Origin: a virus
Lineage: Duplodnaviria > Caudoviricetes
Direction: 5' to 3' (one strand)
Length of the DNA: 64,000 bases
Virus record (IMG/VR): IMGVR_UViG_3300033463_000056
Coordinates: 30,279 to 94,278 of that record
Below, in pieces: positions 20,979 through 58,372 of this stretch. Within the stretch, counting starts at the first letter, position 1. Each line of letters starts with the position of its first letter. The notes below the pieces were generated by a model that was not told the DNA's origin, did not search any database, and saw nothing but the letters and a program-made list of their open reading frames with translations. The translations under genes were made by a program, and so were the position numbers.

Positions 20979-21284
20979 TTAGGAGATCGTCCAGTTGGTG
21001 TTGGAGGAGACGGAGACACTTTGAGCCGGAGTACCAGCAGCAGGAATCGTGATAGTGGTCGGGCTGATGGTGAGGTAAGCGTCGCCAGCGGCTTGGGTAA
21101 TCGCGCAAACGACGGCATCGGAACTACCGCTATTCGGCGTAACCGTCAATTGGCTTGTCTTGGAAGAAATCGTTGTATTCTCGGCTATGTTCGAGAACGT
21201 GATAGAGAATGTGTATTGTTGGGTAGCGCCGGGGTCTCCCGTAATGGCCGAGCCGATGTAGGTGATGATTTCTCCTATTTCCAT
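20979..21284 (-). pseudogene. 3' part of a BACON-like tail protein gene, with a new start
   Basis: GDPGATQQYTFSITF...SVSSNTNWTIS; candidate 5' part stranded at 25256-25327. Confidence 0.55.
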
Positions 21285-21338: not shown

Positions 21339-21366
21339 TCAGTCAATTAGGGCCGAAAGTGGGTTA
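21339..21366 (-). repeat. cassette site A (28 bp)
   Basis: TAACCCACTT-TCGGCCCT-AATTGACTGA on the minus strand. Confidence 0.75.
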
Positions 21367-21531
21367 CTTCTTCGTGGTTGTATAAGTTGGCGTGGAAAGT
21401 GGCTTGAACATCTTACAATGCGTTCCACAATTCCGTATATCACACCCGGCAAGGCAACCCTTTTCGTAGTCATACGGGATGCCGTTGTTATCCGTTACCA
21501 CCCTTCCGAAGAAGTGTTTGCAGTTTATCAT
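21364..21531 (-). CDS. Cys-rich 55-aa cassette ORF
   Basis: Hand translation MINCKHFFGRVVTDNNGIPYDYEKGCLAGCDIRNCGTHCKMFKPLSTPTYTTTKK; fills the space between sites B and A. Confidence 0.65.
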   Translation of the reverse strand: MINCKHFFGRVVTDNNGIPYDYEKGCLAGCDIRNCGTHCKMFKPLSTPTYTTTKK

Positions 21532-21533
21532 AG

Positions 21534-21561
21534 TCATTCAATTAGGGCCGAAATTGATTGA
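21534..21561 (-). repeat. cassette site B (28 bp, near-perfect inverted arms)
   Basis: TCAATCAATT-TCGGCCCT-AATTGAATGA; arms 9/10 complementary. Confidence 0.8.
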
Positions 21562-35097: not shown

Positions 35098-35130
35098 TTT
35101 GCACCTTATGTAACATTTTTGTTATATTTG
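35098..35130 (+). promoter_or_regulatory. sigma-70-type promoter with operator
   Basis: TTTG-21 nt-TATATTTG; AACATTTTTGTT at 35112-35123. Confidence 0.75.
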
Positions 35131-40634: not shown

Positions 40635-41304
40635 AACTATTCTCATTTGCGGAAAGACTGGTACAGGTAAGACTTCCGCTATTCGTACACTCGATCCTTC
40701 GGAGACCGTTATCTTCAAGGTCATCAATCGCACGCTTCCGTTTAAGTTTGCCGGAGTGTATGGCAAGGAGCAGAAGAATTTGTTCAATGCTCCTACCTAT
40801 GAAGATGTTCTGAAAGGTCTTTCTTGGGCCAACAAGCAGCCGAATATCAAAAATGTCGTCATCACTGATGGTACTTATATCATTCGGCAGGAGTATTTCA
40901 AGCTCGCCGCCCAGAAAGGTTACGATAAGTACACTGCATTTGCGATGCATATGCAGCAGATTCTCAAGGCTATTCAGGAACTCCGTGATGACATTAAGGT
41001 GTTTATGGAGTATCATGTCGAAGTCGTGATGACTGATGGTGGCGCTGTCGAGTACAAGCCGTCTACTGTTGGTAAACTTCTGGACAGTCAGTACAACATT
41101 CTCGAGAATGTGGATATCGTTCTGTTTGCCAATCCACAGTATGAAGACAAGAAGATTACCTATGGCTTCGTGACTAATCGTACCATTGATCGTGCAGGTG
41201 CTGAGATTCCGGCGAAGTCTCCAATGGGCATGTTCGAGGATGAGTTCATTCCGAACGATCTTGCTCTTGTTGCGAAGAAGATTGATGAATTCTATGCGGA
41301 ATGA
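40627..41304 (+). CDS. AAA_24/Sak4-like ATPase
   Basis: GKTGTGKT, TVGKLLD, AKSPMGMF...IPND. Confidence 0.85.
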   Translation: MAKTILICGKTGTGKTSAIRTLDPSETVIFKVINRTLPFKFAGVYGKEQKNLFNAPTYEDVLKGLSWANKQPNIKNVVITDGTYIIRQEYFKLAAQKGYDKYTAFAMHMQQILKAIQELRDDIKVFMEYHVEVVMTDGGAVEYKPSTVGKLLDSQYNILENVDIVLFANPQYEDKKITYGFVTNRTIDRAGAEIPAKSPMGMFEDEFIPNDLALVAKKIDEFYAE

Positions 41305-42392
41305 CTAAAGATGAACTTCAAGGAATCGCAGCGCAAAGACTTGTGAAATCTCGAAGGCTTGTCTGTATGTGGGCTACTGGTACGGGTAAAAGCCGGGTGG
41401 CGTTGCGATTCCTTGAGGACCATCCTGGAATTACTTGTCTTATTCTCGTACCGGAGGAAAACAATATCCAGAACTGGCGTGATGAATTTGCGAAGTTTGG
41501 CGTCGATGATGCCAATGTGACGATCTCTTGTTACGCCTCTCTGCATAAGCACCTACATACAAGCTGGAATCTTCTCGTACTTGATGAAGTGCCGCATACT
41601 GATACAGAGAAACGGACCGCAATGCTCAAGACCGTTTGGGCGGATTATATCCTTGCTCTCGGTGCCGTTGTGGATGAACAGGAGATGAATTCCCTTAAAT
41701 CCGTTTACGGCACGTTCGATGTTTCGAGGATATCGCTTGAGCGGGCCATCGAAGAAGGATGGATACCAAGAGTGACCGTGAAGGTGATGCATATGCAGAT
41801 GGACGATACGGTACCGATGTACTGGTATATGGGAAGGACTTATACCGAGAAAGGATATTACAAGGTTCTAAACAACCAGGTGGAAAAAGCCGTTAATACT
41901 TATAACCAGAAAGCTAATGCTTTTAACAAGATGCGTATGCTTTCTGCGGGTAATGAACGAAAACGCTTTCTCGGCGAAAGAAAACTTAATGCTATTAAGC
42001 GTATTTGCGAGAAACTGGACCAGAAAGGAAAGCGTTATCTCTGCTTCTGTTCTTCTATCAAGCAAGCGAACGAATTGGGTGGAGAAAATGCTTTTACTTC
42101 CAAGAGCGCAAAGTCTTTCGCCCATCTTGACAAATTCAATAACCACGAGATAAACTCCCTGTTTGTCGTTGGCAAACTTATCGAGGGACAGAATCTAAAG
42201 GATATTGATTGCGGCGTCATCGGACAGCTTGGAGGAACTACACGAATCTCTGTTCAGCAGGTTGGAAGGGTATTAAGGAGTAAAGAGCCTGTGGTTTATA
42301 TCCCTGTATTTGACGGTACTAAAGATGATAGTTTTCTGTACACTGTAACAAGCAATATTTCAAGGGATTGCATCAAACATTACAAATTTTAA
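41301..42392 (+). CDS. SF2 helicase
   Basis: ATGTGKS, LDEVPH, EGQNL, QQVGRVLR. Confidence 0.88.
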   Translation: MTKDELQGIAAQRLVKSRRLVCMWATGTGKSRVALRFLEDHPGITCLILVPEENNIQNWRDEFAKFGVDDANVTISCYASLHKHLHTSWNLLVLDEVPHTDTEKRTAMLKTVWADYILALGAVVDEQEMNSLKSVYGTFDVSRISLERAIEEGWIPRVTVKVMHMQMDDTVPMYWYMGRTYTEKGYYKVLNNQVEKAVNTYNQKANAFNKMRMLSAGNERKRFLGERKLNAIKRICEKLDQKGKRYLCFCSSIKQANELGGENAFTSKSAKSFAHLDKFNNHEINSLFVVGKLIEGQNLKDIDCGVIGQLGGTTRISVQQVGRVLRSKEPVVYIPVFDGTKDDSFLYTVTSNISRDCIKHYKF

Positions 42393-42417
42393 TTAACTGA
42401 CTTAAATATTATAACCA

Positions 42418-43017
42418 ATGTTATCTGAACTTACCAAGAAAGGAATTCTTGCCATTAAAGGACTTTTGGATGAGTGCAAGGCAGGAATCGAGCAGACTAA
42501 TAAGGACCTCGAGGTCATCGACGAGAAGTATCGGAAGATTATCGCCGAAGAGAAGAAAACGCTGAAGGGTAATCTTGCCGAGTATAAGGCGCAGATGAAG
42601 CAGTATGAGAAGATGTTCTCGTCTTTCGATGCCACGGCTGTCAAGGAAGTACTGGGCGATTTCGAGTCTACGGTGACCGAAGAGCCTGACGCTGTTGCGG
42701 AGACAACGCCTACCGAGGAAGACGAAGGAACTGTTTTCGACACCGTTTTCCCGGAAAACAATACCGAGGAGGAAGAGGAGGAGAAGGAAGACGAGAAGGA
42801 ACTTGTTCCTGTTCTTGCGGAAGAGAAGAAGGACCTCGATGCGGAAGAAGATGCCGACTGGGACGAGAAGATTGAATCTGGAGAAATCAAAAAGATGACA
42901 CAGGAAGATATCGTCAATTCTCTTGAAGCGGCAGGATTCGTCAATGTGGAGAAGAAGGAGGTCCCTACTCTCGTAGATGGAGAAGATGATTGGCCTATTC
43001 CTGAAGACTGGAAGTAA
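42418..43017 (+). CDS. coiled-coil plus acidic-tail protein
   Basis: Highly acidic C-terminus. Confidence 0.65.
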   Translation: MLSELTKKGILAIKGLLDECKAGIEQTNKDLEVIDEKYRKIIAEEKKTLKGNLAEYKAQMKQYEKMFSSFDATAVKEVLGDFESTVTEEPDAVAETTPTEEDEGTVFDTVFPENNTEEEEEEKEDEKELVPVLAEEKKDLDAEEDADWDEKIESGEIKKMTQEDIVNSLEAAGFVNVEKKEVPTLVDGEDDWPIPEDWK

Positions 43018-46022: not shown

Positions 46023-47399
46023 ATGGATTTTGAGAAAATCTGTACGATCTTTTCGATGCAGGAACCCTATTATGGAATTCTGTTATCTGCTATGGACAGA
46101 TTTCAGACTACGAAAATTCCTACAATGGGAGTGTGCAAGTCTGGAAATGTATTCAGGTTGGGATATAATCCGTCTTTCGTAGAGAACAAGGATCTGAATA
46201 CGATGCTTGCATATCTGAAGCACGAAGTCCTTCATGTCGCTTTCAACCATTTTACTCTCTTCGACACAGAACCGTCTTGCCAGGCGGAACAGACGCTTCG
46301 GAATATGGCGGCTGATTTGGAAGTGAACAGTTATGTCGACTTCTCGAATGCAGACTCGAGAGGATTATTGTTTGCAAAGGATTTTGGCTGGGACAATCGT
46401 CTTGGAACAATGGAGTATTATCGTAGGCTCTCCCAGACAAATCAGCAACAGCAACAGCCTCAACAGCAGAAAGCAAAGGCGAAGAATCCGAGCAAGCCGT
46501 GTAATGGCGGACAGGGTGGTCAGTCCCAACAGAATCAGCAGCAGAATCAGCCGCAAGGCAACCGTCAGACCCCGCAGCAATCCGGAAAACCACAGAACGG
46601 TAATGATGATGATGCAGCGGATGATTTTACGGACCGTTCACAGCCGCAGGAAGACACGGAATTGTCTCCGCAGATGCAGCAGGAAGCCGAGAAGTCTTTC
46701 GATGACCACTCTATGTGGCCTAAGGATATGACGGAAGATGAGGTTGAGAACTTGAAACAGGCGATTGATGACCTTTGTGAATTTGCCGCTGAAGAAGTGG
46801 AGAAGTCTTGTGGTAAGCTTCCTGGTGAAATGGAAGGAAGAATCAAACTCATTCGCGAGAAGAAAAGGCCGAAACCCGTCGCTGACTGGAAGAAGTATTT
46901 CCGTCGTTATATCGGTAATGAGTTCTCTGACCAGATTAAGAAGTCTCGCAAGAGAGAATCCAAGCGTTTCCCGGATGCTGCTGGTAACCGTCATAAGCGC
47001 AAGTCTCATATTCTCGTCGGTATAGATACTTCCGGTTCCGTATCGATGCCGGAATATAACGAGTTCTTCGGTCAGATCAAGACGATGAAGGATGTAACTT
47101 TCCATGTCGTAGAGTGTGATGCAATGATTCAGCACGAGTACGACTTCCACGGTATCGTCCCTCAGACTCTTCACGGCGGTGGAGGAACAAGCTTCCAGCC
47201 GGTTGTAGATATGTATAATAGGAACCGAAGGAGGTATGAGGGTCTCGTCTATTTCACTGATGGTGAGTGTTGTATTCCTCGCGATACTCCGAAGGAAACA
47301 CTTTGGGTTGTTTCTTCAAGAGGTGACCATAACAGAAAGAAGTATCTCGTGAATGGTGCTTCAGTAGTGTTTATTCCAAAGAAACAGAACAATGCCTAA
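46023..47399 (+). CDS. DUF2201-like metallopeptidase plus VWA domain protein
   Basis: HEVLH; Q-rich linker; DTSGS, GGGT, FTDG MIDAS motifs. Confidence 0.88.
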   Translation: MDFEKICTIFSMQEPYYGILLSAMDRFQTTKIPTMGVCKSGNVFRLGYNPSFVENKDLNTMLAYLKHEVLHVAFNHFTLFDTEPSCQAEQTLRNMAADLEVNSYVDFSNADSRGLLFAKDFGWDNRLGTMEYYRRLSQTNQQQQQPQQQKAKAKNPSKPCNGGQGGQSQQNQQQNQPQGNRQTPQQSGKPQNGNDDDAADDFTDRSQPQEDTELSPQMQQEAEKSFDDHSMWPKDMTEDEVENLKQAIDDLCEFAAEEVEKSCGKLPGEMEGRIKLIREKKRPKPVADWKKYFRRYIGNEFSDQIKKSRKRESKRFPDAAGNRHKRKSHILVGIDTSGSVSMPEYNEFFGQIKTMKDVTFHVVECDAMIQHEYDFHGIVPQTLHGGGGTSFQPVVDMYNRNRRRYEGLVYFTDGECCIPRDTPKETLWVVSSRGDHNRKKYLVNGASVVFIPKKQNNA

Positions 47400-51142: not shown

Positions 51143-52168
51143 ATGAAGCACTCATTAAGAGATTATTCACTCAATCTTCCTGAGCAGGAGTATCACGACC
51201 TTCCATACTGGTCGTATTCTACGATTGCAAAGTATGCCCGTAATGGATTCTCTGCTATCGCTACGCTTCACGATAAGATTAAACCGACCCCGGAGATGGA
51301 ATTCGGTTCCTTGTTCGACAGCTTCATCACGAAGGGGAAGAAGACCTTGGAGGAGTACGCCGTCGTGGATTTCACCGTTCCACCCGCAGAGAAGGGCGTT
51401 CTGGATGTCCTTGCGGCTACTTCCTCCTATACGCATTTCGATGAGGTCCCGATGTATGATGTCATCAATGCCGCGGAGACGGTCAGTTATCAGCCCAAGT
51501 GGAAGCCGGATACGAGATACAGCCATATCTGCGAATACGCGAAATACTACGATACTGTCAAGTCCGGCAAGAAGCTCGTTTCCAAGCAGGACTGGGACGA
51601 TGCGATGGAGATGTATCGGGTTTTCCGCAACGACGCTTACCTGAAGAATATTTTCGGCGCGAAGGATACGGATGAAGTTGAGTTCATCTATCAGGCGCAG
51701 TTCAAGGTCAATGTCTGGATTGAAGCTGAGAATGTGACGGTGAAGATTATGCCAGATCTCATCATCGTCAATCATACGAACAGGACCATCCAGCTTGTCG
51801 ACCTAAAGACCAGCACGATGCCGGGGTATGATTTCGCCGAGCATTTCGTCAAGATGCGGTATGATATCCAGGGCGAGCTTTATACCGAGGTCATGAAGAT
51901 GATTGCGTATGCTGACGAGGAGTATATGGATTACACCTTCCTTCCGTATCTGTTCGTGGATATCTCCAGGGTCGACAAGGTTCCTGTTACATACGAGATC
52001 GACCTGTCCAACGGTTTCTCCTTCTCCAAGGGCGAGAAAGTGTATGAGTATAAGGGCTGGAAGGACCTGCTGGCGGAGATCCTTGTCTACGAAGCTAACG
52101 AGTCCAAGGTTCCTGATTATATCACCACTACTGGTCCGAATGATTTGATTGAAATCCTCGGAAGATGA
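51143..52168 (+). CDS. PD-(D/E)XK exonuclease (RecE/DUF3799-like)
   Basis: YH....SYS, FGSLFD, KIMPD...VDLKT...YDIQ..LY. Confidence 0.85.
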   Translation: MKHSLRDYSLNLPEQEYHDLPYWSYSTIAKYARNGFSAIATLHDKIKPTPEMEFGSLFDSFITKGKKTLEEYAVVDFTVPPAEKGVLDVLAATSSYTHFDEVPMYDVINAAETVSYQPKWKPDTRYSHICEYAKYYDTVKSGKKLVSKQDWDDAMEMYRVFRNDAYLKNIFGAKDTDEVEFIYQAQFKVNVWIEAENVTVKIMPDLIIVNHTNRTIQLVDLKTSTMPGYDFAEHFVKMRYDIQGELYTEVMKMIAYADEEYMDYTFLPYLFVDISRVDKVPVTYEIDLSNGFSFSKGEKVYEYKGWKDLLAEILVYEANESKVPDYITTTGPNDLIEILGR

Positions 52169-53259: not shown

Positions 53260-53733
53260 ATGACACAAGAAGAAAAGGCGAAAGCCTACGATATGGCTTT
53301 GGAAAGAGCAAGAGACTTCCACGACGGTCCTACCGCAAATATAGTAACGAGGACATTCCTTGAATCAGTTTTTCCCGAACTCCGCGAGAGCGAGGACGAG
53401 AGGATAAGGAAAGAGATTATTGACATCGTTGAATCTTATCGTAGTAACTGCGTTTACGAGGGTACGCATCGGTTTGACGAATGCATCGCTTGGCTCGAAA
53501 AGCAGAAAAAACAAGTAACTGATGAATCCGACAAGATTGCGGCAGCATATCAACTTGGGATAAAGGACAAAGAACAGAAGTCTGTGGAAGGTCTGGACGA
53601 GGCGGCGGATGTGTCTGCAAAAATGAAATATCCTTACGAGGGCGGTATGAAGGGAGAGATTTGCGAATACTCAATCCCAATCTTCGTAGATGGTTTCAAG
53701 GCCGGAGCGGAATGGGCGATGAAACAAAAATAA
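53260..53733 (+). CDS. modular Bacteroidales phage protein
   Basis: KAKAYD.AL, FPELRESEDERIRK, IAWLEKQ, FKAGAEW modules. Confidence 0.7.
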   Translation: MTQEEKAKAYDMALERARDFHDGPTANIVTRTFLESVFPELRESEDERIRKEIIDIVESYRSNCVYEGTHRFDECIAWLEKQKKQVTDESDKIAAAYQLGIKDKEQKSVEGLDEAADVSAKMKYPYEGGMKGEICEYSIPIFVDGFKAGAEWAMKQK

Positions 53734-53821
53734 AAGGAGCAGTCCCGAAAGACTGCCCACTCCGATAACTAATAAATGCTTCCAGGCGGCGGTATTAGTT
53801 AATGCAAAGATAAGAAAAATA

Positions 53822-53980
53822 ATTGGTAATTACCTTGGATTATCGGAAACCGTTTACCGTACATATATCCGTATGATGGACGAAACCGGGACGCAGTTCT
53901 TCCGTTATGTGAATATCAATGTATCTACCGGGGCATACACTAACGACTCCGGATGGAAAAAGATTGTACCGGCTACCTAA
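53822..53980 (+). pseudogene. start-less fragment resembling a tail-fibre C-terminus
   Basis: IGNYLGLSETVYRTYIRMMDETGTQFFRYVNINVSTGAYTNDSGWKKIVPAT*; its stop lies in the left arm of site C. Confidence 0.45.
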
Positions 53981-54007
53981 TCATTTTTTACCCTAATTGA
54001 TTGAATT

Positions 54008-54199
54008 ATGTGGATTAACGCAAAAGCAGAATTGCCCGAAAAGGAAGGATGGTATTTCGTATGCTCCAACGATATGGGAACACCAACCTCGCTTGGAATT
54101 TCGTATTGGGATGCCATCCTTGACAAGTGGCTTGATGTAGAAGGCGATGAGGACACGGGTATTGACTATTGGATGCCCGTCCCTCCTATCGTGGATTAA
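54008..54199 (+). CDS. DUF551-like cassette ORF
   Basis: MWINAK.ELPEK...YWMPVPP. Confidence 0.75.
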   Translation: MWINAKAELPEKEGWYFVCSNDMGTPTSLGISYWDAILDKWLDVEGDEDTGIDYWMPVPPIVD

Positions 54200-54222
54200 A
54201 TCCGGCCCTAATTGATTGAGAT

Positions 54223-54393
54223 ATGTATAGAATCGAATCACGCTATCCGTGCTATTACGGGTGTATTCCCGTCACGGGATATTTCGTTCAACGATTGCAA
54301 GAAGGTTTTTTGTTTGACAAGTGGGTGGATATTAAAGGGTTTGATAGTTATAAGAAAGCAAAAGAACTTCTTGACATCTTGAAAGGTAGATAA
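54223..54393 (+). CDS. 56-aa cassette ORF
   Basis: Hand translation MYRIESRYPCYYGCIPVTGYFVQRLQEGFLFDKWVDIKGFDSYKKAKELLDILKGR. Confidence 0.7.
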   Translation: MYRIESRYPCYYGCIPVTGYFVQRLQEGFLFDKWVDIKGFDSYKKAKELLDILKGR

Positions 54394-54416
54394 TTCCGGC
54401 CCTAATTCGCTGACTT

Positions 54417-54632
54417 ATGACTTGGTTATTGTCGCGTATATTTCCGCATTATTGGGAAGTGAGTTCTTTCGGACAGACTCCCGTTTGGAAAACTCATTTC
54501 CTAACAAAGAAGGAAGCATACGAATATGCAAATACGCATAAGGGTTGCGTTGTGGATTATTACATCAACGCAAGACCGTGGTATTTGATAAGAGTGTCTA
54601 AAGAACACAAAGCATTTTATCCAATTCGCTGA
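54417..54632 (+). CDS. 71-aa cassette ORF
   Basis: Between sites E and F; its TGA is the end of the F right arm. Confidence 0.65.
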   Translation: MTWLLSRIFPHYWEVSSFGQTPVWKTHFLTKKEAYEYANTHKGCVVDYYINARPWYLIRVSKEHKAFYPIR

Positions 54633-54635
54633 CTT

Positions 54636-54818
54636 ATGAAAGAACTTGAAAGGGCGATACAAACCATCGTGGATTTAACGGAAGATGATGATTATATCTG
54701 CGGGATGATGCACGAGACTTCTTCCGGGTCGGAATGGTGCAGAATGAACTGCGGAGAACGGACTTCCCCGGACTTCGTATGTTGCAAGGAATGGATATTT
54801 AACCATTGGAAAAGTTAA
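54636..54818 (+). CDS. Cys-rich 60-aa cassette ORF
   Basis: Between sites F and G. Confidence 0.65.
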   Translation: MKELERAIQTIVDLTEDDDYICGMMHETSSGSEWCRMNCGERTSPDFVCCKEWIFNHWKS

Positions 54819-54838
54819 ACACTTTTTACCCTAACTAT

Positions 54839-55015
54839 ATGAGCAACGAAGAAAATGAACTTGCTTGTTCTGGAACGGGCTGTCGTTTCAGGTTGGTCTG
54901 TGAGCGCTATATCAAGTGGATGACATCAGACGAAGCTGACATCGCTGCATTAATTCCTTTGTATGATAAAGGAGATTGCCCGAATTTGATTCGAACAAAA
55001 TTCTATGGCGGATAA
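54839..55015 (+). CDS. small Cys-rich protein
   Basis: ATG inside the site G right arm; CSGTGC....CERY...C. Confidence 0.6.
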   Translation: MSNEENELACSGTGCRFRLVCERYIKWMTSDEADIAALIPLYDKGDCPNLIRTKFYGG

Positions 55016-55487
55016 CATTATAAATGGCGGAATAATGGACAACAAACTCTTAAACAGGTTGACAAAGCAAGACATTGGCGAGATCGCGGATATGCTGAAA
55101 TCCGTAGATTCACCTGAGATTGATTCAGAGAAAAGAAATTCGGAAGTATTGAAACAGTTGAGGAAATCGAACGAAGATTATAAGCCGTACTGTAAAGACA
55201 GATATAAGGTTCTTCTCGAAATCGCAGAGAAAGTAACCGAGCATCATTATCAGGATAACCGTCAATTCGGGAACGTTCTTATCAAATGCCTCGTGTCAAA
55301 CCGGCTTCGTGACGAAGAATACACACTCAGTGAAATTGGCAGGGCGATGAACAAGCATCATTCAACTGTGATGTTCTACATTGACAAGATGAAGGATATG
55401 CTCTCATTGCCGTTGATGTATGCCAATGAAATCAGGATGCGAAATCTATTCAATATTGCAATTGAAGAACATGATGGACAGGAATAA
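55005..55487 (+). CDS. HTH protein with DnaA C-terminal-like motif
   Basis: TLSEIGRAMNKHHSTVMFY. Confidence 0.65.
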   Translation: MADNIINGGIMDNKLLNRLTKQDIGEIADMLKSVDSPEIDSEKRNSEVLKQLRKSNEDYKPYCKDRYKVLLEIAEKVTEHHYQDNRQFGNVLIKCLVSNRLRDEEYTLSEIGRAMNKHHSTVMFYIDKMKDMLSLPLMYANEIRMRNLFNIAIEEHDGQE

Positions 55488-55683: not shown

Positions 55684-55880
55684 CGCTTGAAGAATCCATC
55701 TACACGCTGATGCGAAAGATGGACGGGAATACGAAACTTGTCGTTCCACTTCAACACTGGGCGCTGGTAAGAAATTACGCTGGACAGCTGCAAAGGGACT
55801 TCGATGCAAAGTACGAGGTACACAGGATGAAGACAAGGAATATGAAATACGACCTTATCTTGATAACACGAAGTCAATAA
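55665..55880 (+). CDS. small basic protein (recombination directionality factor candidate)
   Basis: Convergent on and overlapping the integrase 3' end; function inferred from position only. Confidence 0.45.
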   Translation: MEKKELTLEESIYTLMRKMDGNTKLVVPLQHWALVRNYAGQLQRDFDAKYEVHRMKTRNMKYDLILITRSQ

Positions 55881-57072
55881 CGCGCCTGTTGGCCTCATCT
55901 ACTTTGCTTTGTTCGAACTTCACATAGATTAAGGTAGTCCTATTCCCAGCCGAATGCCCCAATGCCTGACTTATGACATCCAATGGTATTCCGGCTTCGT
56001 AGGCGAAGGTCGCCCAGCAGTGTCTGGCATAGTAGGTCGAGATTTCCGGGATGACTGGTGTGATAATCCTTTCCGGCTTCGGCGGAGCGAACAGGTCATC
56101 AGGGTCGGGAACCATCTCCCATCTGACGTCTCCGATTTCCTTCAGACGGTCATTCATCTCGTGGGCGAAGTTGCGGTAGTCCTTGCAATGGTCCATCGCC
56201 TCCAGCAGATAGTCCTTCCCTTCATATCTTTTCAGCAGTTCCTCGGCTTCCGGTTCTATCCTGATTGAGTAGCGTTTGTGTGTTTTTTCGCGTATGTATT
56301 CCAGCCTGCCACCACTAACCTGTTCCTTTTTAACCAACAGCAGGTCCTTGGAATTCATCCCGATCAGGTAGAACATCAGCTTGAAGTAATCACGGTAACG
56401 GTTATTCGCCGGTGTCGTTGGATAGTCGAGGAACTTCCTGAAAAGTTCTATCGGGACGCTCCGTTTCTTCGTCGGTTCCTGCTTGATGGAGAAGTTCCTG
56501 AAGGCATAGGACAGGTTGTACTGGTGTGAACCGTAGTTGCACACCGCACGAAGGGAACGGAGATAGATGGCGCGACCATTCACCCCCTGACTCTTCGACA
56601 AAAACTTTTCAAACTGATGAATCCATTTCAAATCTATGTTTTCCATCTTCAACGACTTGCCTCCGAACGCAAGAACCTTCGACAGGGTAGCACGATAGAT
56701 ATCCTTCGTTCCATCAGAGATATCCGTAGCAAGATATTCCGCAAACAGTTCTGACACCAGATGACTGGAGACCCTCGGTTTATTGGATGTGATATGCGCC
56801 TTGATATCGGAGGCGGACATCCGATCAAATCTTTCATCAAAAGAAAGCAAGGCAATAGCGCGGTCTATCTTTCCTTTCTTTTCCTGGAGGGCGGCGTTCT
56901 GGGTTTCAGAGCCAACGGTTTTAATCCTTTCTCCGTCCCACTCGTTTGGAGCGACACGGATACCGGTGGATACCGTAGTCATAGTACGGTTATGAAAGAT
57001 ATGGATAAGGATAGTACCCTTACCGTCAGCGGCTCTGCCCCGCATATCGAGGTAGAATTTTGTGCTTGCCAT
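55855..57072 (-). CDS. int: tyrosine integrase (Bacteroidetes type, arm-binding plus SAM-like plus catalytic domains)
   Basis: KFYLDMR..DG...I.I.H...STGI.V..EW arm domain; YIREKT; YYARHCWAT; ISQALGHS..TT.IY. Confidence 0.93.
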   Translation of the reverse strand: MASTKFYLDMRGRAADGKGTILIHIFHNRTMTTVSTGIRVAPNEWDGERIKTVGSETQNAALQEKKGKIDRAIALLSFDERFDRMSASDIKAHITSNKPRVSSHLVSELFAEYLATDISDGTKDIYRATLSKVLAFGGKSLKMENIDLKWIHQFEKFLSKSQGVNGRAIYLRSLRAVCNYGSHQYNLSYAFRNFSIKQEPTKKRSVPIELFRKFLDYPTTPANNRYRDYFKLMFYLIGMNSKDLLLVKKEQVSGGRLEYIREKTHKRYSIRIEPEAEELLKRYEGKDYLLEAMDHCKDYRNFAHEMNDRLKEIGDVRWEMVPDPDDLFAPPKPERIITPVIPEISTYYARHCWATFAYEAGIPLDVISQALGHSAGNRTTLIYVKFEQSKVDEANRRVIDFVLSR

Positions 57073-57100
57073 TTGATTCTCTTTTCGCAAAGAAAAACAA

Positions 57101-57350
57101 TCTGCAATCAATCTGCAAGTTTTTCTGCAAACGGGCACAGAAGGCTGAAAGATTGACGAAAAATAAGAAAATCTTGGCAACCAAGTAACAAGATTGTTTC
57201 ATTACCTGATTGCCAAGACATTACAAGGTGGAGATAGTCGGATTCGAACCGGCGACCCCATGCTTGCAAAGCATGAGATAAACGACAATAACAATTTAAT
57301 AACCAAGCAGATACAAAATCTTTGGATTTATTCTGCAAATAAATCTGCAA
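57101..57350. other. attP: tRNA-Ala(TGC) 3'-half core with TCTGCAA arm-type repeats
   Basis: Minus strand 57275-57227 CATGC TTTGCAA GCATG GGGTC GCCGG TTCGAAT CCGAC TATCTCC ACC; TCTGCAA at 57101, 57112, 57124 and 57332, 57344. Confidence 0.85.
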
Positions 57351-57680: not shown

Positions 57681-57902
57681 ATGGAACGAATAGTAATCAT
57701 TGATCACGACGAACATATACTTTTCATCGAAGACCTTGACGAAGATGGACTCGAGAAGAAATACGGTGGTGAGGAAGAAGAATATATCAAGGACAATTAC
57801 AATCTGGGTAAGAACTGGTCATGGGAATTCATTACAAGAATCGAGTATTATCCCTGCGACTACCAAGACCCAATTGAGCTTGAGCCTAAAGACTTATTAT
57901 GA
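57681..57902 (+). CDS. hypothetical protein
   Basis: Start MERIVIID. Confidence 0.55.
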   Translation: MERIVIIDHDEHILFIEDLDEDGLEKKYGGEEEEYIKDNYNLGKNWSWEFITRIEYYPCDYQDPIELEPKDLL

Positions 57903-58372
57903 ACTACGATCTGACAGATAAACAGCAGAGAAGGAAGTTCGTCAAATACGCGAACAGCCTTCTGAAGAACAAACGCACACTGGTTTCGTTGGAAGACAAG
58001 TCCAACCGCACTCTTTCCCAGAACTGTTACATCCATGTATTGTGCAGGATACTTGCACAGGACACAGGCGTAACGGAGTATTATGCCAAGCAGGTATATT
58101 TCAAGGAGCTGGCAAATGCTGATATCTTCGTTCATCCTACAAAGGATGCACTTACCGGAAAGATGATACGAACTGTTCGTAGCTCGGCTGATTTGTCCAT
58201 CCAGGAAATGGCAAAGGCGATTACGAACTTCAGAAACTGGGCGTCGGAACAGGGATATTATCTTCCAGAGGCTACGCTTAATGACGATGGGACGATGACA
58301 TTCAATGATGAACGAGACAAGGAAGCGTTCCGTCAGGCGGAGATTGAAACAAGCAAAGAAATAGGATTGTAA
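57899..58372 (+). CDS. NinB/Orf-like recombination protein
   Basis: RTLSQN.Y.H...RSSADLS..EM..AI..F..WA. Confidence 0.7.
   Translation: MNYDLTDKQQRRKFVKYANSLLKNKRTLVSLEDKSNRTLSQNCYIHVLCRILAQDTGVTEYYAKQVYFKELANADIFVHPTKDALTGKMIRTVRSSADLSIQEMAKAITNFRNWASEQGYYLPEATLNDDGTMTFNDERDKEAFRQAEIETSKEIGL

Follow-up and report, generated by a model that had tools for sequence, protein, structure and literature searches.

A short sequence motif with the layout TTYCGG-CCC-TAA-n-TGA-n-TGA-nnT-ATG was found to bound small exchangeable genes in a tailed phage genome (G000), of which one stretch, hereafter the window, was analysed. The window comprises the last 64 kb of the 94,278-bp IMG/VR virus record IMGVR_UViG_3300033463_000056, which carries direct terminal repeats, and the DNA runs containing it are bovine gut or rumen metagenomes. 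The motif is nearly invariant across dozens of otherwise unrelated rumen Bacteroidales phages. A sequence-only reading of the window had proposed micro-cassettes, that is, single-gene units lying between 28-bp recombination-like sites and moved by an integron-like mechanism; the cassette idea was supported, and the observation behind it was confirmed and extended beyond this genome. With a probability of about one half, we consider the motif to be a portable intercistronic junction that also offers general recombination 23-31 bp of identity at which modules can be exchanged.

Motif Copies and Cassettes in the Window

The window harbored seven copies of the motif, five on the plus strand at 53977-54842 (sites C to G) and two on the minus strand at 21339-21561 (sites A and B), the copies within each of these two groups being co-oriented. 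The five sites of the array, already listed in the sequence-only reading, were recovered at the same positions, with CCCT cores beginning at 53991, 54206, 54400 and 54829 and the right arm of site F at 54623-54632, and the intervals of 215, 194, 219 and 210 bp between them were reproduced. When the right-arm gene-start pattern AATTSRYTGANNTATG was scored with up to one mismatch against expectation and against 100 shuffled sequences, five matches were obtained versus 0.19 expected, and none of the 100 shuffles reached five. In the whole 94-kb genome, the strict core occurred five times and its reversed control not once.

The array opens with site C (53977-54004), composed of a left arm, the TTTACCCT centre and the right arm AATTGATTGA, in which TTTTTA replaces TTYCGG in the left and central part, as also happens in site G. 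It is followed by the cassette open reading frame (ORF) 1 (54008-54199; 63 amino acids, aa), by the canonical site D (54192-54219), which reads TAA-ATCCGG-CCCTAATTGATTGA-GAT-ATG, and by ORF2 (54223-54393; 56 aa). Site E (54386-54413) has lost its middle stop (TAA-T-TCG-C-TGA) and precedes ORF3 (54417-54632; 71 aa). Site F (54605-54632), which reads TTTTATCC-AATTCGCTGA-CTT-ATG, and site G (54815-54842), with CCCTAACTATATGA, are both degenerate, and between them lies the Cys-rich ORF4 (54636-54818; 60 aa). The Cys-rich ORF5 (54839-55015; 58 aa) closes the series, and all these features are on the plus strand.

It had been claimed that each interval holds exactly one ORF, which was true in the window, where ATG-initiated ORFs of 63, 56, 71 and 60 aa were found, but not in G002/L015, in which intervals held one to three ORFs. 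Similarly, the ATG was indeed placed 3 nt past the right arm, and hence 3 nt past TGA, in sites C to F, but in site G it overlaps the arm (TATATGA). The stop of each ORF was located in the next site as proposed, either in its left arm or, for ORF3, at the TGA of site F itself. No Pfam or PHROG family was assigned to the small cassette ORFs, save a weak DUF551-like match of ORF1. In the Rfam search, no family reached its gathering score in the window, and at E <= 1 nothing meaningful appeared in 53.0-55.6 kb.

The 257 nt upstream of site C (53734-53990) showed no convincing gene. They contained two hairpins, the first of which (53737-53758) reads as a minus-strand terminator, and a start-less 85-codon frame that ends in the left arm of site C and had no homolog among the related sequences compared. 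Elsewhere in the window, TAATTAACTGACTTA was observed at 42390-42404, after the stop of a 363-aa gene (41301-42392) and 13 nt ahead of an ATG at 42418; this segment resembles a class II right arm (see below) with one mismatch, the CGGCCC part being absent, and may be a decayed motif copy.

Exchange of Cassettes at the Sites

The genome of the window was compared with a related contig (G001) and with contigs from three other samples, all of them assembled contigs. In G001, the segment C-ORF1-D was 99% identical, with an ORF1 protein 100% identical, and the segment E-ORF3-F-ORF4-G was 97% identical, site F being kept. ORF2 and ORF5 were swapped for other sequence: an unrelated 98-aa ORF stood in place of ORF2, and ORF5 was replaced beyond its first 15 nt, or five codons. 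All four breakpoints between the window and G001 (53991, 54229, 54388 and 54853) were found at sites, with homology starting exactly at 53991 in site C, restarting at 54388 in site E and stopping at 54853, 15 nt into ORF5. The genes neighbouring the array were only 40-76% identical in G001, against 97-100% for the cassettes.

The contigs from other samples displayed further arrangements. One of them repeated that of G001, and a 2.7-kb contig aligned solely over 54203-54407 (D-ORF2-E), the remainder being unaligned context; others carried ORF4 alone or site G fused to foreign DNA. In this way, ORF2 was seen alone in a foreign context in run X5, and in run X4 a 190-nt unitig of its own held ORF4. 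Three further samples between them showed other junctions at sites D, E and G, and the source sample's own contigs broke at D and G. Among the joints listed for these assembled contigs, none was of the circle or deletion type, a result that carries no weight for or against mini-circles.

The same behaviour was observed at other loci. Among nine locus pairs that share one flank only, all nine broke between -8 and +25 nt from the core, where position 0 is the first C of CCCT. The difference between G003 and L030 consisted of exactly one 85-aa cassette plus one site, lying between 23-nt direct repeats, and L038 and L043 differed in the upstream gene, which in L043 encodes a 1018-aa protein with tail-fibre matches, the break occurring at the motif. 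Since a homolog of ORF2 (72% identical) was found in a phage without the motif (L122), the motif belongs to the junction and not to the gene. The proposal that cassettes bounded by the sites are exchangeable was thus borne out by replacement (G001), by transfer to a foreign context (D-ORF2-E) and by presence or absence (G003 versus L030). In the alignment of related phages, which had been suggested as a check, genes were gained, lost and replaced at the sites, the indels and replacements being bounded by motif copies and every resolvable breakpoint falling between -8 and +25 nt of a copy.

Distribution among Phages and Hosts

Beyond this genome, no fewer than 38 IMG/VR phage contigs, 32-99 kb long and apparently of bovine rumen origin, carried the core, and the exact 15-base core GGCCCTAATTGANTGA was found in 43 IMG/VR contig stretches, with up to 6-7 copies per contig. 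The records concerned ranged from complete 32-35-kb genomes up to 99-kb genomes, and approximately 71 non-redundant copies were counted in roughly 2 Mb of related sequence. Identical patches of 23-31 nt were common to sites of different phages; for instance, a 29-31-nt allele of site D recurred in L008, L030 and L041.

In one genome per prokaryote species, the scan returned matches at chance level and matches in a ruminal Candidatus Cryptobacteroides metagenome-assembled genome, on two small phage-like contigs; the 17-mer was present in one of 401 host-family genomes, namely this same assembly, in its phage-like contigs only. With up to three mismatches, 17 scattered matches were obtained in 60 genomes versus six in the control, and no one-per-genome site emerged. 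Among GenBank phages, neither the array region nor site D was matched, and the motif strings were absent in a phage context from the literature searched. These results indicated that the motif is a feature of the phage community and not of the host chromosome. The link to host Xer recombinases and dif that the sequence-only reading had raised was not upheld, no dif-like copy being found in the 401 host-family or the 61 host-genus genomes. Neither a host dif-like site nor a host regulon turned up among the host genomes that were searched.

Three-Frame Stops and Restart

A feature overlooked in the sequence-only reading is the three-frame stop and restart logic of the motif. Its TAA (positions 3-5), first TGA (7-9) and second TGA (11-13) occupy three different frames, and the site closes any upstream ORF whatever its arriving frame. 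Among 57 non-redundant sites, the longest upstream ORF ended at +3 in seven, at +7 in nine and at +11 in eight, and 7-18 nt upstream in another 29. In the copies designated class I, the next ATG stands one codon beyond the last stop and in the same frame. The ORFs beginning right after the motif comprised 31 distinct sequences from 29 unrelated families, with a median of 63 aa.

Variant stops were collected in scans anchored solely on the neighbouring motif parts and therefore unbiased for the triplet tested. The middle triplet was TGA in 65 copies, TAA in three, and TAG, TCG and CAA in one each; the third triplet was TGA in 65, TAA in four, CGA in three, TTA in two, and TGC and TAT in one each. 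Eight of the 17 variant triplets were still stop codons, compared with about 11-20% expected under neutral substitution, and the most variable core positions were the two spacers between the stops. Because variant copies keep stop codons and the spacers vary most, this pattern points to selection on the motif acting at the translation level.

Architecture of the Motif

In the logo built from 53 non-redundant contexts, A or AA was enriched at -17/-16, -12 and -8, TT-Y-CGG occupied -6 to -1, with CGG in about 86% of sites, and the CCC-TAA-n-TGA-n-TGA core was followed by T at +15/+16 and a purine at +17. Two classes were distinguished. Class I (GATTGA-GAT-ATG) had its ATG exactly at +17 and accounted for 22 of the 53 sites, and class II (GACTGA-CTTA) represented about half of the copies, with the next ATG 20-115 nt away. 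In some class II copies, a GC hairpin begins directly after CTTA; a strong downstream hairpin was present in 6 of 26 class II copies and in none of the ATG-adjacent ones (class I versus class II, p = 0.03). Large genes (470-1177 codons) often precede class II copies, the motif lying 9-18 nt past the gene, and four of ten such genes match tail-fibre PHROGs.

On the minus strand of the window, site B (21534-21561) lies directly past the stop of a 480-aa gene, the last of the tail-fibre module, and together with site A (21339-21366) it flanks a Cys-rich ORF of 55 aa (21364-21531). Site A belongs to class II (GACTGA-CTTA) and is followed by the GC hairpin GGGGGCCTCCGGGCCCCC and then by a 101-aa ORF (20979-21284), an arrangement that recurs in L012, L017 and L032.

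Gene orientation around the motif was scored by purine skew, as a proxy for the coding strand, and not by ORF length, because the motif itself truncates sense frames. The motif strand was purine-rich in 49 of 59 downstream and 44 of 56 upstream flanks; thus, since it is the purine-rich coding strand in most flanks, the motif is co-oriented with the genes.

As to the layout of 10-bp arms around an 8-bp centre, symmetry above background was confirmed family-wide (5.1 of 10 arm positions complementary versus 2.6 in controls), but it is weak: the right arm hardly varies, and the left arm follows only the weak consensus TCAwTCAcTT. The variable arm positions (-11/+10) showed no covariation, so the arms are not a selected hairpin. 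A hairpin or attC-like fold of the site was rejected on this basis.

In five loci (L007, L009, L019, L046 and L047; e.g., L019:6898-6966), two divergent motif copies stood about 30-37 nt apart, one of them with CCCTAAGTGATTGA. Between them were two to three direct repeats of TGTGGAACAA, which look like DnaA-box-like iterons, and an inverted repeat, TTGTTCCGG/CCGGAACAA, surrounded one copy; by its sequence, this region looks like an origin or a regulatory switch.

A Proposed Portable Junction and Its Competing Explanations

As a portable intercistronic junction, the element of about 30-35 bp would comprise the upstream stop, TTYCGG, CCC, TAA-n-TGA-n-TGA, nnT and the ATG. In the mRNA, it would insulate adjacent cassettes and couple their translation by means of termination and reinitiation, and a protein-binding or transcriptional role is probable for TTYCGGCCC and the weak left arm as well. 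In the DNA, general recombination would cross over at the junction, because phages infecting the same hosts together have identical stretches of 23-31 bp beside many of their genes; the exonuclease VIII-like nuclease and the NinB/Orf homolog of the phage, or host RecA, are candidate enzymes. Such crossovers would insert, delete or replace single small genes and tail-fibre modules, as promoter-early stem-loop (PeSL) cassettes do in T4-like phages. A length of 23-31 nt is about the minimum for efficient homologous recombination. General recombination was favoured because the identity patches are of this length, because the phage has its own nuclease and NinB/Orf homolog, and because the PeSL cassettes offer a precedent. 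It would also be a simpler mechanism than a recombinase, given the coding logic of the motif and the shuffling of PeSL cassettes by homologous recombination.

Several points weigh against this reading. Both partners carry the same motif sequence, and the breakpoints therefore cannot tell homologous crossover from the site-specific kind. The strongly conserved TTYCGGCCC and the weak left-arm symmetry are without a demonstrated function, and translational coupling would be impossible for class II, that is, about half of the copies, because the next ATG is 20-115 nt away. The divergent pair with TGTGGAACAA iterons looks like a regulatory site acting at the DNA level. An invariant sequence in such diverse phages normally implies one shared factor that recognises it, and none was found. 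Finally, the p value for the keeping of stops (about 0.0002-0.01) comes from a hand binomial that depends on the substitution model and rests on 17 variants, some of which may be related by descent.

A second explanation is dedicated site-specific recombination, in which a 28-bp site made of a weak left arm, a conserved asymmetric 8-bp centre and a strong right arm would be cut and rejoined by a phage integrase or a host tyrosine recombinase, and promoterless cassettes would leave as circles and enter other copies in the manner of integrons. We consider it unlikely, although the 10-8-10 symmetry above background would suit it, and so would the better conservation of the centre and right arm relative to the left arm. 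The same pattern of one better-conserved side occurs at the sfx sites of the R64 shufflon and in XerD versus XerC arms. Copies are also present on both sides of cassettes, and among them are terminal copies beyond which there is just a terminator or a convergent gene (G434 at 1262 and G417 at 47322), and near-identical cassettes are found in diverged phages.

In the window, a tyrosine integrase gene (55855-57180, minus strand), with Arm-DNA-bind_5 and Phage_int_SAM_5 domains, is convergent with the array and about 1 kb downstream of it. Of the 14 near-complete motif-bearing genomes, 13 encode a member of its family, the sole protein so widely shared among them, and the distance between site and integrase has a median of 3.5 kb, closer than under random rotation (p ~0.0006); both facts count in favour of dedicated site-specific recombination. 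However, the site is invariant whereas the integrases of motif-bearing genomes have no more than 24-70% identity, the complete motif-bearing genome G428 has no integrase, and arm-binding and SAM-like domains such as those of the window's enzyme are typical of complex att systems. Moreover, accessory genes commonly lie beside att and int in temperate phages, which would explain the proximity. The junction at site G was located 15 nt past the ATG, inside ORF5 and not in the spacer, there was neither hairpin covariation nor a once-per-genome dif-like host copy, the variants that keep stops suggest selection at the translation level, and active sites in direct repeat would destabilise arrays.

Of the integron-like tyrosine recombinase mechanism in the sequence-only reading, the cassette behaviour was supported, but no recombinase was tied to the site. 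Its remark that no IntI gene is present was correct in the strict sense, with the qualification that a tyrosine integrase lies 1 kb downstream. A wider version of this explanation, in which the rumen Bacteroidales phage community would share a cassette-exchange system with a 28-bp asymmetric site, a tyrosine recombinase, and single promoterless mini-genes and tail-fibre modules passing from phage to unrelated phage, each insertion being automatically terminated in every frame and restarted as in a phage-borne, hairpin-less analogue of integrons, is likewise improbable in our estimation.

A third possibility, which we hold to be doubtful, is that the motif is a phage-specific promoter or operator, recognised on the DNA by a transcription factor or polymerase of phage or host. 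Transcription would start at the purine 4 nt past TGA, producing leaderless mRNAs where ATG is at +17 and hairpin-led transcripts elsewhere, and mosaicism would be a by-product. Among sites without ATG, T at +16 was kept in 23 of 31 and a purine at +17 in 22 of 31; several class II copies have a hairpin right after CTT(A/G), at the putative 5' ends, and downstream structure was slightly stronger in class II (p = 0.03). The divergent copies around the iterons, the lack of a full host-type TTTG...TAnnTTYG on the plus strand at 38.2-55.5 kb and a -7 box in just 3 of 30 class II leaders were also counted in its favour, as was the report that in phi14:2 the promoters of early genes transcribed by the virion RNA polymerase remain unknown (bioRxiv 10.1101/2020.03.07.982082). 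Nevertheless, neither a sigma region 2 nor an RNA polymerase or regulator common to all motif-bearing genomes was found, and the motif is unlike the Bacteroidetes -33/-7 consensus and the tripartite promoters of this genome. In addition, a promoter at the terminal copies would have nothing to transcribe, since a terminator or a convergent gene lies ahead of them, and substitutions that keep stops are unexpected for a protein-DNA site.

Two related candidates were examined and set aside. For a phage sigma factor, no Sigma70_r2 match was obtained, just weak generic helix-turn-helix (HTH) matches to r4_2. For the motif as block 1 (TAAG-N7-CTTA) of the tripartite promoters, the likeness was loose (TAAT-N7-CTTA) and the other two blocks were absent. 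As to the promoters of the window themselves, tripartite ones (TAAG-N7-CTTA, GTAnTTCG and TAnnTTYG) were observed ahead of virion operons and plain TTTG-N17-23-TAnnTTTG ones ahead of early and replication operons; those at 748 and 9243 (minus strand) and at 35098 and 38126 (plus strand) fit the description of phi14:2 middle and late promoters.

A purely translational explanation, in which the motif is a leader that pairs with host 16S ribosomal RNA (rRNA) in place of a Shine-Dalgarno sequence and is conserved only for this RNA-rRNA contact, seems to us very improbable. The fixed 3-nt distance of the ATG in class I would agree with it, and Bacteroidetes rarely use Shine-Dalgarno sequences. However, duplex energies with the 16S rRNA of the candidate host genus, for both the full rRNA and its 3' tail, equalled those of shuffled motifs, and half of the copies are far from any ATG.

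Comparison with Known Systems

The closest described counterpart of the motif is the PeSL cassette of T4-like phages (Arbiol et al. 2010; Comeau et al. 2014). PeSL cassettes are stop-to-start modules placed before ORFans, and homologous recombination between them results in indels, replacements and encapsidated mini-circles (PMC2839356, PMC4122927). Both elements are short conserved intergenic modules that reach from an upstream stop to a downstream start, stand before the small ORFans of plastic regions, a few copies also lying in virion modules, and bound indels or replacements between related phages. PeSL recombination gives single-gene mini-circles, and such circles had been proposed here in the sequence-only reading. 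In contrast, a PeSL combines a host sigma-70 consensus promoter, a poly-G/poly-C stem-loop and a Shine-Dalgarno sequence, whereas the present motif has no host-type promoter or obligatory stem-loop and is characterised by three-frame stops and a 3-nt restart. The host primary-sigma promoter TTTG...TAnnTTYG was found neither inside the motif nor in 50.5-56 kb. Furthermore, the motif is almost unchanged in temperate 32-99-kb phages of different lineages, and PeSLs are found in one phage family. By analogy, the motif would represent junction-mediated shuffling of the PeSL type in another host phylum, by means of a differently built, cross-lineage element.

Integrons share with the array the single orientation of unrelated, mostly promoterless small ORFs, each bounded by a recombination-associated repeat, the presence of a tyrosine recombinase gene nearby and a highly diverse cassette pool. 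They differ in that attC sites are imperfect hairpins of 57-141 bp that act as a folded single strand with little sequence conservation, whereas the phage site has 28-35 bp, is invariant in sequence and shows no pairing covariation. The phage integrase is convergent and arm-binding, unlike IntI, which is divergent from attI and Pc; neither attI nor Pc was identified here.

The pdif modules of Acinetobacter plasmids and the IMEX elements use XerC/XerD, and pdif sites are 28 bp long, with an 11-6-11 layout and alternating orientation, and mimic host dif. The likeness lies in gene modules bounded by 28-bp two-arm sites, one arm being better conserved, in many unrelated replicons; the phage motif differs in its 10-8-10 layout, in the direct orientation of all array copies and in that no dif-like host copy was found. 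Compared with sites of the loxP or FRT type, arm complementarity averages 5.1 of 10 versus 2.6 in controls, with a near-invariant right and a weak left arm, and apparent breakpoints span -8 to +25 nt, the partners being identical across the motif and the junction at G lying 15 nt into an ORF.

Lambdoid phages reportedly exchange modules at boundary or linker sequences through relaxed recombination at short homologies, a notion said to run from the modular theory of Susskind and Botstein to the work of Juhala in 2000, Clark in 2001 and De Paepe in 2014. In both cases modules are exchanged by crossover at short sequences conserved where genes meet, an accessory region lies between the tail-fibre genes and att/int, comparable to the lambda b region, and the phage encodes recombination functions (exonuclease and NinB/Orf). 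Lambdoid linkers are heterogeneous and mostly pairwise, whereas here one defined motif, whose internal design is recognisable, recurs at many junctions in many phages.

If the portable junction is real, it would give exchange among uncultured rumen and gut phages a defined sequence that can be searched for, at which accessory genes and tail-fibre modules, and with them host range, pass across lineages, so that mosaicism in Bacteroidales viromes would become mappable, countable and testable. The small accessory genes traded probably serve host takeover or anti-defence. The PeSL idea, so far confined to T4-like lytic phages, would be extended to temperate Bacteroidales phages by a differently built element, and the combination of an all-frame stop with a fixed restart would constitute a natural 'universal linker' design that bears on gene expression in bacteria not using Shine-Dalgarno sequences. 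If a dedicated recombinase were involved, the motif would define a new cassette system.

Neighbouring Genes and Further Observations

The window genome carries portal, large terminase and tail-fibre genes on the minus strand, and a DnaB-like helicase, an exonuclease VIII/PDDEXK-like nuclease and a NinB/Orf homolog on the plus strand, together with the arm-binding tyrosine integrase. The PDDEXK (DUF3799, exonuclease VIII-like) recombination nuclease is encoded at 51143-52168 on the plus strand, and the homolog of the NinB/Orf family of recombination mediators, which is common to six motif-bearing genomes, at 57899-58372. Just past the array, a 160-aa HTH protein (55005-55487, plus strand) has a DnaA domain IV-like C-terminal half (HTH_38 and Bac_DnaA_C below cut-off) and few homologs in a set of 5.8 billion proteins, and its gene is found downstream of sites and in the same direction in G000, G003 and G004. 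This protein is only a candidate DNA-binding partner, and its role as reader of the motif was weakened by its presence in just 8 of 14 motif-bearing genomes.

Within the 157-aa gene that precedes the array region (53260-53733), about 50 nt at 53371-53423 (within 53303-53504), coding ...PELRESEDERIRKE..., had a contig depth approximately 10-fold above that of its surroundings in all four runs. This stretch showed many alternative joints, and dozens of contigs, some of them from phages of more than 300 kb, matched it at 82-97% DNA identity. It may represent a further recombination patch that is widely shared, or a protein motif under strong conservation.

In G434 (C1:1260-1420; L038 from 1262 onward), the last motif copy is followed by a host-type -7 box (TATCTTTG), a short hairpin, a canonical intrinsic terminator and the integrase gene. 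The segment could encode a small RNA of about 60-80 nt, or simply be the terminator of the array.

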